Origin: a phage
Strand: one strand, 5' to 3'
DNA: 64,000 nt
Sequence record: PX421306.1
Shown here one piece after another: positions 25,632 through 33,623 of the stretch. The position numbers and the translations under genes were made by a program. The notes below the pieces were generated by a model. The model saw only the letters and a list, made by a program, of their open reading frames with translations, had not been told where the DNA came from and searched no databases. The number at the start of each line of letters is the position of its first letter. Positions within the stretch are counted from its first letter, which is position 1.

Positions 25632-25686
25632 CCTCATGTTATGTCAGTAAGATTATTATAACACAATACGAGGGACTTGTAAACTA
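25632..25686 (-). promoter_or_regulatory. Early promoter/leader cassette copy A (stop codon + TTTACA-17-TATAAT + conserved leader + SD)
   Basis: Minus strand: TAG-TTTACAAGTCCCTCGTATTGTGTTATAATAATCTTACTGACATAACATGAGGAACACAAAATG. Confidence 0.65.
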
Positions 25687-27741
25687 CATCTTGAACTTTT
25701 TAGACATTCCATTGATGTTAACCAAAGAAGCCAAGATTTGAGAAACTTCGTTTTCCTCTTCTTTTGATTCTTCTACAAGGAATTGATTAAACCCAGCCAT
25801 TGGACGAACTTCACCAGTTTCCATCAGATGGTCGCCATCATATACCGATTCTTCTAATTGTTCAGAAGGAGGAACGATTGTGCCTTCGATTAGATACTTG
25901 TTATAAGCAGTTTCTTTCATCATGTACGTACTCACTTTATTAATCTTCAGCAAAATTCCACGTGGTAAAATAACTTCAGCTTCTGATGGAAATCCTGATA
26001 AATGTCCTGGAACGATAACTTTGATTCGCTCAGCTCCTTTAATTACCATACCCACGCTAGTTTCAGCATCTTCATTAGCATATGCAGAATGACTGCCCAT
26101 ATGCATTAAATCTTCAGCATCAACAGAACCTTCTCCTTCACCAGAAAATACTGCACCGGAATCATCTAGAGCCATATAGTTTTTACCATACTCACCGAAG
26201 ATATTTGGTTTAAGCGATGTGGATACGAAGTTCTTGAAATAAAACATTTTATTTTCAATATTATGACGTAAAGTTTTAAAGGTAACTTCTTGTCCACGAT
26301 AAAGTGTAGTTCCTGGAGGAAGAACTGATCCTTTGGCAAAGGCAGAATCCATTGTCTCGATGTGTTTAATAGCTCGTTCCATGTATTCTTCACGGGTAGA
26401 ATCTGGTTTACCCAAGAGGAACGAGTTCATTTCAACATATGAATCTGCACAATAATCTTCAATTACATCAGACTCAGCCTGAGTTAATCCTTTTGGGGGT
26501 ACTTCAGTACTTGCGTATTCATATGCCTGAGCAGCAGATTCATTAATCAATTTATAAATGCCATTCATGACAAATTGAATAATAGCTACTTTTTCGTCTG
26601 GCGTGGCTTTAGAACCTTTAACTAAATCATTGATAATTTTCTTAATAACATCAAAGCTATTAGAAATATTAATGTCAGCGAGATCGCTTAAAATTTTATC
26701 GGTTTTATAATCAAAGAATTCTTTATTCTTTAAATATTCTTGAGAACCTTGATATGTTATATCGCTCTGTAACTTGATAGATGGATCACGTAAACGTGCA
26801 TGAGCCAATGCAATATGATTTCGGAAGCTTTCTAGTTCATAATCGTTAGATTTAAAACGAGAAGCACTCCTCATACCACTGATAGCTCCTTTGCTGAAGT
26901 TTGAACCGACCTGAATAACGCCAGAGTTCATTGGTCCTTCTGCTTTATATACCGGAACTTTAGATTCAAACTCTTGATATTTCTTAGCAGCGAAGCTATC
27001 GCCCTGAAGTGAAGCATCGACAGTAGAGTATTGAGCTTGTGCTGCTAATCGACGACTAATTTTAGTTTTCTGAATAACAGCTTGATCCGTGCGCTTATCA
27101 TTTTCTAAGGCAATAGAAGCAGCGACAGCAACAGCTTTAGGAACAGCATTACCTGTTTTAACATCTACATAAACATCACCAACCTTTGATTCAACTTTTG
27201 TGAATAACTCAGTTGAAATAGGAGGTACACCTGGAATGTCTTCTAAATTAGCATTTTTACGGTAAACCATAATATATGCATATTTCTTATCATAGTCCCA
27301 GATTTCCTTTAAAAGAACATATCGACCTGCTCCTTTAGTACGTACTAAACGGTCAGCAATAACTTGCATTTGACGAGCAGCGCCATTTGTTTTACTTTTT
27401 AGTACGCGGAATAGGCATGCATCAATTTTATACTGTTTCATTGTTTGAAGAGCAGTATCAAAAACCGCATTAATGACACCAATTGGATTTCCACCTAAGT
27501 TTTTAAGTTTAACTAATGATAGCTTTTCATTGACACCTATCATTACGATATGCATCATTTTATCGCCTGGCTTAACGTTTTTATTCGTATCACCGCCAGA
27601 GGTGTATGTACAAAATCTAAATCCAGGAAGCACGCTTTCTTCACCCGCTTGAATAGCAAAAATTTGAGGTATTTTATGCTTAGGATTTAAGTTAACAACC
27701 GGCGCCGAAGCGCCGTCAAATAATTCTGTAATAAGTTCCAT
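25684..27741 (-). CDS. alt: Alt-family mono-ADP-ribosyltransferase (685 aa), R-S-E class motifs, probable capsid-packaged
   Basis: YRGQ...FVSTSL...EAEVILP (Arg / STS / ExE); N-terminal MELITE|LFD resembles a prohead-protease-cleaved targeting leader; which paralog is canonical alt is uncertain. Confidence 0.8.
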   Translation of the reverse strand: MELITELFDGASAPVVNLNPKHKIPQIFAIQAGEESVLPGFRFCTYTSGGDTNKNVKPGDKMMHIVMIGVNEKLSLVKLKNLGGNPIGVINAVFDTALQTMKQYKIDACLFRVLKSKTNGAARQMQVIADRLVRTKGAGRYVLLKEIWDYDKKYAYIMVYRKNANLEDIPGVPPISTELFTKVESKVGDVYVDVKTGNAVPKAVAVAASIALENDKRTDQAVIQKTKISRRLAAQAQYSTVDASLQGDSFAAKKYQEFESKVPVYKAEGPMNSGVIQVGSNFSKGAISGMRSASRFKSNDYELESFRNHIALAHARLRDPSIKLQSDITYQGSQEYLKNKEFFDYKTDKILSDLADINISNSFDVIKKIINDLVKGSKATPDEKVAIIQFVMNGIYKLINESAAQAYEYASTEVPPKGLTQAESDVIEDYCADSYVEMNSFLLGKPDSTREEYMERAIKHIETMDSAFAKGSVLPPGTTLYRGQEVTFKTLRHNIENKMFYFKNFVSTSLKPNIFGEYGKNYMALDDSGAVFSGEGEGSVDAEDLMHMGSHSAYANEDAETSVGMVIKGAERIKVIVPGHLSGFPSEAEVILPRGILLKINKVSTYMMKETAYNKYLIEGTIVPPSEQLEESVYDGDHLMETGEVRPMAGFNQFLVEESKEEENEVSQILASLVNINGMSKKFKM

Positions 27742-27744
27742 GAT

Positions 27745-29841
27745 TTATCCTTGAACGAACTTGTAAGGCATGTTTGTAATATCTATGCAAGACGCAATAA
27801 TTCCAAGAGATGATTCTACTTTCTGTTTAACGTTTGATGAAACAAATGATGCAAAGTCAACTCTGTCTTCTACTTCAATATCACCTGTCATTGCAACTAC
27901 TTCGCCGGTTTCCATTAGACGGTCACCGTCATAAATGACTGATTCGGTGAGTTCTTCCGTAGTCATAACTTCAGCTTGAATGAGTTTTGTGTTATTAGAT
28001 GTTGTTCCGTCATTATTAGAAGCATCAGTTATTTTATTAACTTTGACCATCAATCCGCGTGGTAGAATAACTTCAGCTTCTGTTGCTATTCCGAGACTTC
28101 CTGGATATACAACATTAACTTTATGAGCTCCATCAATTGCCCATCCTATTTGAACTTTAACGTATTCAGGATTTTCTTTATACGCTCTTATTTCGCTTGG
28201 ATTAATAGTTATTCCTTCTTCATTTTTATCAACTGTTAATTCATTGCGAACTTCTGGTTCTAAAAGACCAATACCAGCATGTGTAATTCCAAAACGTCCA
28301 AAAATGATAGGAGTTAAAGAAGTAGATACAAAATTTCTGAAATAGAACACTTTATTTTTAACTAGTGCTTCGTATATAGGAGCAGTCATACTTTGAGCAC
28401 GATAAACTGTAATGCCTTCTGGTATACGGTCACCGTTTTCAAAAGCTGAATCTAAGTTATTTATAGCAGATTCAATTTCTTTTTCACTCATTACATCATA
28501 TCGTTCTGGATTGTAACGACCCAAAAGAAGATTATTGATGTCAGTATATCCTGAACCACAATACTCTCTAATGCCGCGCTTTTGTGATGGAGTATATTTA
28601 GAACCATCACGGGCAATAGTAATATCAATCATTGGACCTGCACCAATTCCAGAAAAGCTATAAATCATTCTTTTAAGGAATTTAGTTTTTGCTGCGTTCC
28701 AGGAATTTTTAGTTATTTCTTCCCAGACTTCATCTGGCTGTCCTTTACGGGTTTTATTATGTTTATCAAGCCAATTATCTTTATATTCTTCAAAGAATTG
28801 ATTAACAGCTGCTGCGTATTTCTCTAAACATTTTATTGAAGTGGTTGGTTCATTTTTAATCGCATTAAGAATTACATCTTTAATTTTTTCAGAAACTTCA
28901 TTAACCTCACTTTTTGAAAAGAATTTATAGTCATAGTGAAGTTCATCTGCGGTTCCTTCGGCAATGATTTTTGCTGCCTTAGTTTTAGAAGCTAATGAAT
29001 TAATTCCAAGCTTCATTTCTTCTGCTTCGGGAATTAAAGGAGCTGTAGCAGGTTTATTGAAATTAGCTGCGGTAGATTCATATTTCTGGAATAATTCACT
29101 TTCAAATCTAGAAGATTCCAATGACTGACTTTGCGCAATTGCTCTACGGGAAATTTTAACTTTAACGATTACAGCTTGGTCAGAACGTTTATCGTTTTCT
29201 TGCGCAATAGATGCCGCAATTGCCTCATTTTTAGTTACTTGAGCTCCAGTATCTTTATTGATATAAACATCGCCGACTTTCGATTCAACTTTAGTAAAGA
29301 GCTCGGTACTAATTTCCGGAACTCCTGGAATGTCTTCTAGTGATACATTTTTGCGATGTATAAGAATATATGCATACTTTTTATCGTAATCCCAGAGTTC
29401 CTTAAGAAGGACGTATCTGCCACCTGAACGACTGCGGATAAGTCTATCAGCAATAACTTGAATTTGTCGAGCTTGACCAGCAGTTTTAGACTTAAGAATA
29501 CGAAGCATACAGGCATCAATTTTATACTGACGCATCGTTTGCATCGCAACAGTAAAAACTGAATTGATGTAATTAATTGGGCTTGGACCGAGACCTTTCA
29601 ATTTAGCAATTGAACCTTTAGCAGTTAATGTAAAAGGAACAATGTGCATCATTTTATCGCCCATCTTTAGATCACGGTTAGTATCACCTCCAGATGTATA
29701 GGTACATAAACGAAAGCCTGGTTGTTCAATTGCGTCATCAACATGAACTGAAAAAATTTGTGGTATTTTCTTCTTTGGATTTAAGTTTGTAATCGGAAGA
29801 GTAGTATCTTCGTCAAATAATTCTGTAATGAGTTCCATCAT
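27745..29841 (-). CDS. Alt-family mono-ADP-ribosyltransferase paralog (698 aa)
   Basis: Same N-terminal leader MELITELFD, YRAQ...FVSTSL...EAEVILP; tandem to the 685-aa paralog. Confidence 0.8.
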   Translation of the reverse strand: MMELITELFDEDTTLPITNLNPKKKIPQIFSVHVDDAIEQPGFRLCTYTSGGDTNRDLKMGDKMMHIVPFTLTAKGSIAKLKGLGPSPINYINSVFTVAMQTMRQYKIDACMLRILKSKTAGQARQIQVIADRLIRSRSGGRYVLLKELWDYDKKYAYILIHRKNVSLEDIPGVPEISTELFTKVESKVGDVYINKDTGAQVTKNEAIAASIAQENDKRSDQAVIVKVKISRRAIAQSQSLESSRFESELFQKYESTAANFNKPATAPLIPEAEEMKLGINSLASKTKAAKIIAEGTADELHYDYKFFSKSEVNEVSEKIKDVILNAIKNEPTTSIKCLEKYAAAVNQFFEEYKDNWLDKHNKTRKGQPDEVWEEITKNSWNAAKTKFLKRMIYSFSGIGAGPMIDITIARDGSKYTPSQKRGIREYCGSGYTDINNLLLGRYNPERYDVMSEKEIESAINNLDSAFENGDRIPEGITVYRAQSMTAPIYEALVKNKVFYFRNFVSTSLTPIIFGRFGITHAGIGLLEPEVRNELTVDKNEEGITINPSEIRAYKENPEYVKVQIGWAIDGAHKVNVVYPGSLGIATEAEVILPRGLMVKVNKITDASNNDGTTSNNTKLIQAEVMTTEELTESVIYDGDRLMETGEVVAMTGDIEVEDRVDFASFVSSNVKQKVESSLGIIASCIDITNMPYKFVQG

Positions 29842-31539: not shown

Positions 31540-31805
31540 TGCTCATCCTTCAAAGTTTGATTTACAGCTCTATTATAAATCAATTCATCATTAAGCTCAG
31601 TCAAAGACCTATGATATGTAGTTCTAACTTTATTTCCTTGCATCCAATGCTTGATATAAATGAAACCTTGCTCTACACATTTTTTAAAAATTCGTTCGTC
31701 TTTTTGAGCTCGGAATTCTGGATTGCATCTAAAGAATTGATTTACGTGACCGTAATCACGTGTAGTATTACCTTCATTTTCATAAATAGTGTGAACGACA
31801 AACAT
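31536..31805 (-). CDS. 30.1: Hypothetical protein (30.1-like)
   Basis: 89-aa ORF in 30.1 position. Confidence 0.55.
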   Translation of the reverse strand: MFVVHTIYENEGNTTRDYGHVNQFFRCNPEFRAQKDERIFKKCVEQGFIYIKHWMQGNKVRTTYHRSLTELNDELIYNRAVNQTLKDEQ

Positions 31806-32668
31806 TAGAATGCTCCTTGGAAAATATTATCACCACTAGTAAATCTATTAAAATACCCTGCATCACCAGGCTTAGTATAACTCCACGTATGGAATGGATT
31901 CATATGATACGGGTGTGTATAATATGGATTATATTGATGTGTATAATATGGATTATACGGATTAAATCCAGGAGTTCTCCAGGTAGTGTTCCAACGAAAA
32001 GAATCGTTTTTAACCATCTTCTCAATTACATCTTTTATAGCTTTTTCACTATCAAAACTTTCTTTATTTTCCTTCGGTGAAAAAAGCTTATTTTCTACAT
32101 CATTCCATGTATAAACTCGCTGCGCAGTTTTTGGAATATTGTCACGCTCTCCTCGAGCCATCCAATAAACAGGAACATTTAATATTTCACTCGCGTGGTC
32201 ACAGTGGTGAGCGAGATCGTCAATATAACAAATTACGTTATATTTCTCTTTTGCCTTTTTAAACAACTCTTCTTTTGAAGAATCATGACCACACATCATT
32301 ACTTCTGAGAAGGCACCAGGAAAAAGAGCATTCAAATTAAATTGACGATTCAACAGAGCGTCAATAGAATCACCCAATGCTGTAACAGCTACAAAATTAT
32401 AATCTTCTTTTAATTTGTTAATTACACACAGGGCATCTTTATATGGAGACAAGTAACGAATAAAATCTGAACGATTGTATTTTTCAATTAACTTGACGCC
32501 AAGTTCTTCATCACAATTAAAGAGTTTACCTGGAGAAATAAATTTCTCATCTTGGATCATTTTTAAAATATGTTCTAACGGAAGATTATATTTCTGAGCA
32601 AAATAAGGAAGGCCTGATTGCCAGCTTAAACATACTCCATCAATATCAGTCAAAATAGTTGGCTTCAT
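31805..32668 (-). CDS. 30.2: HAD-like phosphatase/nucleotidase-fold protein (30.2-like) with Tyr/Pro/His-rich repetitive C-terminus
   Basis: N-terminal TDIDGV (HAD motif I-like); 287 aa. Confidence 0.65.
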   Translation of the reverse strand: MKPTILTDIDGVCLSWQSGLPYFAQKYNLPLEHILKMIQDEKFISPGKLFNCDEELGVKLIEKYNRSDFIRYLSPYKDALCVINKLKEDYNFVAVTALGDSIDALLNRQFNLNALFPGAFSEVMMCGHDSSKEELFKKAKEKYNVICYIDDLAHHCDHASEILNVPVYWMARGERDNIPKTAQRVYTWNDVENKLFSPKENKESFDSEKAIKDVIEKMVKNDSFRWNTTWRTPGFNPYNPYYTHQYNPYYTHPYHMNPFHTWSYTKPGDAGYFNRFTSGDNIFQGAF

Positions 32669-33123
32669 AGAGAGTCTCTTAATAGGTTTAACACATCAAT
32701 AAATTCAGCTTCGGTTAGTATTGTATCATCTTTTGTTAGACCACTAGCCATGCTGTGCTTCAAAACTTTTCCTTTCGAGGCTTGTAATGCATCACGAAAG
32801 CCCCTGTTTTGGATCGCTGCTTCAAAATATGCATTTGTGTATAATTCTTTCCACGCCGGGGAGTATCTTGAAAACGGAACTCCAAGCCAGAAGAGGGTCC
32901 CACGGTCCTGAGCTCTAGCATAAGACCTTCCAGCTTGTTGGGCGGCAAGCCCGGATAACCCAAATATACGTCTTTGCTGTTCAACATTTTTCACCTTACA
33001 TCCTTGGAGGAATCCTTCGAGACCTCCAAATTGGATACCATCCATAACGAAAGGCCATTGGGCGAAATTGCTTAATGCACATGATGGCCATCTAAAATTG
33101 CTTCTAATCTCTAATTCAGACAT
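32665..33123 (-). CDS. 30.3: NADAR (YbiA-like, DUF1768) domain protein
   Basis: LSNFAQWPFVMDG motif typical of the YbiA/NADAR family; 152 aa. Confidence 0.75.
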   Translation of the reverse strand: MSELEIRSNFRWPSCALSNFAQWPFVMDGIQFGGLEGFLQGCKVKNVEQQRRIFGLSGLAAQQAGRSYARAQDRGTLFWLGVPFSRYSPAWKELYTNAYFEAAIQNRGFRDALQASKGKVLKHSMASGLTKDDTILTEAEFIDVLNLLRDSL

Positions 33124-33331
33124 CTTTAATACTTATAATTTCAACATCAGCCCAATAACCGTAACCCGGTAAACGGTCTTCAATAGATAATCTGCCATCA
33201 TATTTAAGCATTTTAATTGTCATAATATATGGCTCTAAATGGTCTTCTGTGAGAGGAGAAACGTCAGTCACACGATAAGTAACTTCGACCATTTCCGTGC
33301 CCAGTAATTTCTGGATTAATTTCTTAAACAT
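33116..33331 (-). CDS. Hypothetical protein (71 aa)
   Basis: ORF in 30.x cluster. Confidence 0.5.
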   Translation of the reverse strand: MFKKLIQKLLGTEMVEVTYRVTDVSPLTEDHLEPYIMTIKMLKYDGRLSIEDRLPGYGYWADVEIISIKDV

Positions 33332-33335
33332 TTTA

Positions 33336-33623
33336 TTAAAATCTCATCTGAAAACCGTGTGATTTAACATTACCGCCGCCGATATCAGAAATGTTAATTT
33401 CACGCGCAATTGAAGGGTCAATATCAATTTCACGATTGAGTTTAGTGATAGCTAAAGTATCACGCCCATTTACAGTACGGAACTCTAAAGGGCAGACTAC
33501 ATTAACGTAGTTTTTAATTGATTCACTGGTAGGTTGCAAATGAGCAGGAAGGTCTTTAGGTGCCTTAGAGAAAACCACTTCACAGAAATTTTTGCGGGTA
33601 TCAAAATAAGTAGTCATAAACAT
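33336..33623 (-). CDS. Hypothetical protein (95 aa)
   Basis: ORF in 30.x cluster. Confidence 0.5.
   Translation of the reverse strand: MFMTTYFDTRKNFCEVVFSKAPKDLPAHLQPTSESIKNYVNVVCPLEFRTVNGRDTLAITKLNREIDIDPSIAREINISDIGGGNVKSHGFQMRF

Follow-up and report, generated by a model that had tools for sequence, protein, structure and literature searches.

An intact adfN gene (gene 30.3) encoding a probable phage-type NADAR ADP-ribosylglycohydrolase in a T4-like phage

Enzymes of the NADAR superfamily were reported to reverse the ADP-ribosylation of guanine by DarT1 toxins, and a variant carrying histidine was noted among phages (Schuller et al. 2023; PMC11543638). The enzyme of phage T4, gp30.3, hydrolyzes ADP-ribosylated guanine (G-ADPr) but not ADP-ribosylated thymidine (T-ADPr) in vitro, and in the same study it failed to rescue cells from DarT1 (Toxins 2024; PMC11125620). 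It also removes G-ADPr from RNA, but does not remove ADP-ribosylated cytidine (C-ADPr) (PMC11833690, PMC12945103). The construct is given in Methods 4.2 of PMC11125620 as “E. coli T4 phage NADAR (gp30.3; residues 1-208)” and T4 gp30.3 is 152 amino acids long in the reference genome; the length of 1-208 could be a typographical error, could count a tag, or could point to the use of another phage protein. Here we describe a 64,000-nucleotide stretch of phage DNA (sequence record PX421306.1; hereafter the window), in which an open reading frame (ORF) at positions 32665-33123 on the minus strand very probably is this phage's copy of the T4 gene.

The biological role of gp30.3 was established by genetics. 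Resistance to the DarTG1 system was mapped to gene 30.3 by using chimeras of RB69 with T2 or T4, and the gene was renamed adfN (Johannesman et al., bioRxiv 2024; Nat Commun 2025, 16:1598; PMC11825919). Both T4 and T2 became about four logs more sensitive when adfN was deleted, and RB69 was rescued by AdfN supplied ectopically (PMC11825919). AdfN does not bind DarT1, and the purified protein, but not its E36A variant, de-ADP-ribosylates DNA that has been modified by DarT1 (PMC11825919). In T-even phages AdfN is necessary and sufficient for resistance to DarTG1, but not to DarTG2. A transposon screen of T4, available as a preprint, independently found adfN to be conditionally essential on a DarTG1 host.

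The window ORF is intact from ATG to TGA and occupies exactly 32665-33123. An earlier interpretation made from the letters alone, here called the sequence-only reading, had placed a 152-residue ORF at this position and gave no strand. The encoded protein is identical to T4 gp30.3 at 150 of 152 residues (98.7%), with two conservative substitutions (K107R and I125M), and has 100% identity to the protein of Shigella phage ESh17. It matches the Pfam family PF08010 (Phage_30_3) over the full profile with E = 5e-70 and 234 bits, compared with a cut-off of 36, and homologs are encoded in 1511 phage records. Judged by the PF08010 score, the T4 identity of 99%, and the number of records, the match to the gp30.3 family is far beyond chance. 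Because the T4 proteins from alt.-3 to 30.9 map to the window in T4 order and orientation, the ORF is gene 30.3. As in T4, it is flanked by 30.4 and 30.2 and has the DNA ligase gene downstream, and the coding sequence (152 amino acids plus a TGA stop) is annotated here as adfN, a phage-type NADAR DNA ADP-ribosylglycohydrolase.

Membership in the NADAR superfamily was examined with an alignment, A1, of 59 full-length family homologs. When searched singly, 21 of these 59 match the Pfam NADAR family PF08719, with a best E of 1.5e-7. A profile built from A1 and compared with the sequences of all solved structures found E. coli YbiA (2b3w) as its best match (E = 0.003, residues 14-67) and missed 8bau and 8bat. 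A search by fold was needed because the family profile reached only YbiA, and that marginally. The protein has the alpha+beta NADAR fold, and YbiA is among its top fold matches. The hallmark of NADAR proteins is an N-terminal SNF...DG sequence followed by a catalytic glutamate and a lysine (E..Q..K). All members of A1 have S18, N19, F20, E36, and Q40, whereas D28, G29, and K43 occur in at least 90% of them. The alignment of A1 with YbiA pairs SNF, DG, Glu36, Gln40, and Lys43 with their YbiA counterparts. The matches of 21 relatives to PF08719, the YbiA alignment, the conserved residues, the position of His123, and the presence of the C-terminal helix that is lost from the defective RB69 allele are the reasons for assigning the window protein to the NADAR superfamily, where it belongs to the phage gp30.3 subfamily and is neither YbiA-type nor DarG1-type. 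Pfam itself holds gp30.3 proteins in PF08010, apart from NADAR.

The individual elements of the gene lie on the minus strand. The NADAR signature LSNFAQWPFVMDG (residues 17-29) is encoded at 33037-33075 and aligns column for column with FSNFAAWPIKVDG of YbiA. Both stretches had been quoted in the sequence-only reading, and both are genuine, the second being present in the YbiA chain of 2b3w. L17 and F25 are also invariant among the 59 family members. The codon of the catalytic residue Glu36 is at 33016-33018; this invariant residue aligns with the glutamate of YbiA ...TSEHYFQ, and in T4 AdfN the E36A substitution causes defects both in vitro and in vivo (PMC11825919). Lys43, an ADP-ribose contact encoded at 32995-32997, aligns with the lysine of YbiA ...QAQKF, and the K43A substitution impairs rescue by T4 AdfN (PMC11825919). 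His123 (in VLKH), with its codon at 32755-32757, is invariant and stands at the end of the last beta-strand, which spans residues 120-123 in the model. The residue in this last strand is histidine in phage gp30.3 proteins, glutamate in YbiA-type proteins, and aspartate in DarG1-type proteins (PMC11125620, PMC11543638, PMC12945103).

The C-terminal helix EAEFIDVLNLLRDSL (residues 138-152; 32668-32712, minus strand) is likewise intact, with residues 138-151 helical in the model, and the C terminus ...EAEFIDVLNLLRDSL of the window protein matches that of T4. Full activity requires this segment. In the RB69 genome record a one-base insertion, which we reproduced, ends the protein after ...TILT and leaves the helix out of frame. 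A T4 protein truncated at the stop point of RB69 has reduced activity (PMC11825919). RB69 is sensitive to DarTG1 because the insertion removes the last 15 residues (PMC11825919).

Comparison with described relatives places the window protein most closely with T4 AdfN, with which it shares the length of 152 amino acids, E36, K43, and H123, the C-terminal helix, and the genomic position. The window phage differs from T4 in the two conservative substitutions, in lacking 30.5, and in carrying a 30.4 that is just 49% identical, and no functional difference is expected. In contrast to DarG1 proteins such as that of Geobacter lovleyi (PDB 8bat), AdfN is an orphan that has no adjacent DarT and lacks the N-terminal extension. 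Of the 152-residue core, 132 residues align to the 219-residue 8bat chain. Position 123 is a histidine, unlike the aspartate of DarG1, and AdfN does not serve as an antitoxin in uninfected E. coli. YbiA (PDB 2b3w) shares about 20% identity and has a glutamate in place of His123; it is the product of a chromosomal housekeeping gene tied to riboflavin metabolism and swarming, and gives no protection from DarT1 in vivo.

Other phage factors also act against DarT toxins. NADAR-Bas32 and NADAR-Bas60, from T5-like phages and Vequintavirinae, counter DarTG1 through the de-ADP-ribosylation of guanine, but they come from separate NADAR clades and reflect independent acquisitions. These two enzymes are effective in uninfected cells and for unrelated phages; the T4-type enzyme, by contrast, is fully effective in T-even infection only. 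AdfM, the T4 Tk.4 macrodomain, and AdfA, a DarT1 binder of the T4 type, are T-even anti-DarT factors that are unrelated to AdfN. AdfM, as a macrodomain protein, counters DarTG2, whose toxin modifies thymidine. The discoverers of AdfA recognized no enzymatic domain in it, and the R164H variant of AdfA associates with DarT1. The genes for AdfM and AdfA are not expected to lie in the window.

With identity to T4 AdfN, the NADAR fold, the catalytic residues, an intact helix, and T4-like synteny all found here, we put the probability at roughly 0.93 that the ORF is the adfN of this Tequatrovirus and encodes a minimal NADAR-fold ADP-ribosylglycohydrolase. Given the 99% identity, the window copy would be predicted to behave like T4 AdfN. 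The gene would be expressed from the 30.9-to-30 block, transcribed early and in the middle period, and would probably be translationally coupled to 30.4 and 30.2. On infection of a DarTG1-carrying cell, DarT1 would ADP-ribosylate guanines in the phage DNA and block replication. AdfN would then hydrolyze the bond between guanine and ADP-ribose by using Glu36, Lys43, and the phage-type His123, restoring the base so that replication could go on. It presumably would do so without binding DarT1, and would act on guanine-ADPr only, rather than on the thymidine-ADPr made by DarT2 or on cytidine-ADPr.

Several observations weigh against the reading of the ORF as an active NADAR anti-DarT1 enzyme. A Pfam scan of the window protein gives no match to NADAR (PF08719) even at E <= 10, and an NCBIfam scan gives no match. 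The expectation of the sequence-only reading that the protein would match NADAR/DUF1768 therefore did not hold for the protein itself and did hold for the 21 relatives noted above. The sole sequence-profile link to a solved NADAR is the YbiA match, which is marginal and confined to residues 14-67. In T4 AdfN the E36A and K43A substitutions lower rescue in vivo without abolishing it (PMC11825919). Moreover, T4 AdfN does not neutralize DarT1 in uninfected cells and barely rescues phages other than T-even phages. The enzyme activity seen in isolation therefore does not fully account for how AdfN-T4 works in vivo.

Alternative explanations differ mainly in the substrate that they assign to the enzyme. 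The main or additional targets could be RNA carrying ADP-ribosylated guanine, or soluble molecules that other defenses derive from ADP-ribose. In vitro the T4 enzyme does remove G-ADPr from RNA, although its activity is weaker than that of the E. coli C7 NADAR (PMC11833690), and the family is spread over 1511 phage records across many host genera. Such targets are an unlikely account of the gene, since the genetics of T4 and T2 tie the phenotype to DarTG1 and to de-ADP-ribosylation of DNA; they fit as an extra role beside anti-DarTG1 activity and not as a replacement for it. A housekeeping N-glycosidase of the YbiA type that acts on intermediates of the riboflavin pathway would account for YbiA ranking first by sequence profile and among the top matches by fold, and YbiA-type NADARs are linked to riboflavin metabolism. 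We consider this highly improbable, because the glutamate that defines the YbiA type is replaced by an invariant histidine in the gp30.3 family, published phylogeny puts gp30.3-type NADARs nearest to DarG1 rather than YbiA, and the anti-DarTG1 phenotype has been demonstrated experimentally for T4 AdfN.

The phage also encodes its own ADP-ribosyltransferases, and AdfN might limit collateral modification of nucleic acids by the Alt paralogs that lie 3-7 kb away. The two full-length Alt-like genes at 25684-29841 are transcribed in the same direction as adfN, and Iyer et al. described NADARs in T4-like phages as being expressed early together with ADP-ribosyltransferases. A function of this sort is nonetheless very unlikely, as the target of Alt according to the T4 record annotation is RNA polymerase, a protein, no defect of adfN deletions has been reported on hosts without DarTG1, and NADAR neighbors vary widely across 80 related loci. 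The chance that the window carries an inactive allele is close to negligible. Such alleles do exist, as the deletion of the last helix by a one-base insertion in RB69 demonstrates, but the window ORF is full length, retains its catalytic residues, and shares 99% identity with the T4 protein, which is active, so that this reading is refuted by the sequence itself.

The dependence of the T4 enzyme on its infection context raises the matter of a partner. Full activity of AdfN-T4 is seen only in T-even infection. DNA modification has been excluded as the cause with T4-GT7, and the authors posit a T-even “potentiating factor.” It is conceivable, if quite doubtful, that this factor is a coupled neighbor, either gp30.4 (33116-33331) or the HAD-fold protein gp30.2 (31805-32668). 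We surveyed 80 gp30.3-type loci from IMG/VR with phmmer and one round of iteration with hidden Markov models (HMMs). A gp30.4 gene was present in 12 of the 80, all of them close T-even relatives with at least 84% AdfN identity and with the 8-nucleotide overlap described below in each, and gp30.2 was found within 3 kb in 18 of 80. At over 60 divergent loci the neighbors were unrelated. HMM iteration added no members to the 30.4 and 30.2 families, and most divergent loci lacked both. Because there is no linkage across the family in these 80 loci, the idea is unsupported, yet it is still allowed, given that a T-even-specific factor is what would be expected. Neighborhood linkage was therefore rejected as evidence for a partner factor, and the idea is kept as speculation.

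The survey also provided a view of the wider family. At loci L019-L085, on IMG/VR contigs of up to 380 kb, gp30.3-type NADARs of 37-46% identity have very varied immediate neighbors, which range from small ORFs of 50-120 amino acids to proteins of 400-680 amino acids and frequently share 1 or 4 nucleotides with the NADAR gene. It seems that the gp30.3-type gene moves from one accessory region to another in large myoviruses.

From its gene content, the window can be assigned to a Tequatrovirus that is T4-like gene by gene from alt to 30.9. In the 3 kb that surround the ORF, DNA identity to many Tequatrovirus genomes is 95-96%, and identities to T4 proteins are 99% for ligase, 100% for 30.1, 90% for 30.2, 98.7% for 30.3, and 97-100% for 30.6-30.9. 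The window contains no match to T4 30.5. Between 30.3 and 30.7, at 33116-33623 on the minus strand, the gene content is unlike that of T4, and the 30.4-like ORF is only 49% identical to T4 gp30.4, compared with 98-99% for the flanking 30.3 and 30.6. This difference from T4 is a local cassette replacement. No DarT gene is present among the neighbors from alt.-3 to 30.9, which are all T4 genes, and the NADAR is thus an orphan. Several small ORFs of uncharacterized function (30.1, 30.4, 30.6, 30.7, and 30.8) are indeed found nearby, as had been claimed from the letters alone.

The 30.4-like gene (71 amino acids; 33116-33331, minus strand; phrog_2042 match) lies directly upstream of adfN. Its stop and the adfN start share an 8-nucleotide overlap, ATGTCTGA, at 33116-33123 on the minus strand, and this junction suggests that the two genes are translationally coupled. 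The adfN stop and the 30.2 start overlap by 4 nucleotides, ATGA, at 32665-32668 on the same strand, as they also do in close relatives. Matches to early- and middle-type T4 promoters on the block were annotated by the depositors of a close relative's genome. A generic scan for sigma-70 promoters and terminators gave no enrichment over shuffled sequence.

Gene 30.2 (31805-32668, minus strand) encodes 287 amino acids, comprising a HAD-fold hydrolase in residues 1-200 and a disordered tail. As a single sequence gp30.2 has no Pfam match at E <= 10 and nothing meaningful among solved structures, and its family profile gives a weak match to 5'(3')-deoxyribonucleotidase (E = 0.036). Invariant motif residues together with the fold establish it as a HAD protein, which bears out the earlier description of an accessory cluster with a HAD-like gene. 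Homologs range from about 176 to 347 amino acids, and their similarity is mostly limited to the N-terminal two thirds of the window protein. The tail, encoded at about 31805-31940, is rich in proline, tyrosine, and histidine and carries a 10-residue insertion relative to T4 (...NPYNPYYTHQYNPYYTHPY...).

Other features of the adfN sequence were also considered. The gene has a guanine-plus-cytosine (GC) content of 42.7% (GC3 35%), compared with 36.3% for the window and 32-37% for its neighbors, which is at the 97th percentile among window stretches of 459 nucleotides. The raised value could reflect amino acid composition or foreign origin; an argument for recent horizontal transfer from GC was rejected, as the 97th percentile is too weak. 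A 75-residue ORF at 32760-32987 (minus strand), in the +1 frame within adfN, corresponds to the annotated 30.3' of T4 (92% identical). This frame is open in T4, the window, SA21RB, and Dhakavirus LHE83, and is interrupted by stops in RB69 and Yersinia phage JC221. It is therefore not conserved beyond close relatives, and 30.3' was rejected as a real second gene.

Farther along the same strand are the tandem, full-length Alt-like ADP-ribosyltransferase genes at 25684-27741 (685 amino acids) and 27745-29841 (698 amino acids), whose products are 41% identical. The small T4 ORFs alt.-1 and alt.-2 correspond to parts of the 685-residue paralog, namely its N-terminal ~116 residues (95-98% identity) and its extreme C terminus (72%), and T4 therefore appears to carry a deletion remnant of the gene that is intact here. 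An intact 685-residue paralog with at least 95% identity is present in about 400 phage records, and is therefore common in Tequatroviruses. The Alt ortholog at 27745-29841 is a mosaic relative to T4 (70% overall), in which the first ~240 residues and the C-terminal end are nearly identical and the center is strongly divergent. This pattern suggests that recombination took place within the gene.

The sequence-only reading had proposed a candidate factor for reversal of ADP-ribosylation in anti-defense, and this proposal is borne out by the published work on T4 AdfN, of which the window gene is a 99% identical copy. Our results support three refinements, namely that Pfam separates the family from NADAR, that the activity is specific for guanine and DarTG1, and that the function, proposed as a candidate, is in fact a validated one. 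The gene, fold, enzymology, and anti-DarTG1 role were already published for T4 in 2023-2025. Because the function is published and the copy is 99% identical to that of T4, the discovery value is low. The assignment is of use for annotation, since most GenBank records label adfN “hypothetical protein” and a plain Pfam scan misses the NADAR link. An intact adfN predicts that the window phage resists hosts carrying DarTG1, and a frameshifted copy like that of RB69 predicts sensitivity. The state of adfN is thus a practical marker when therapeutic T4-like phages are chosen.
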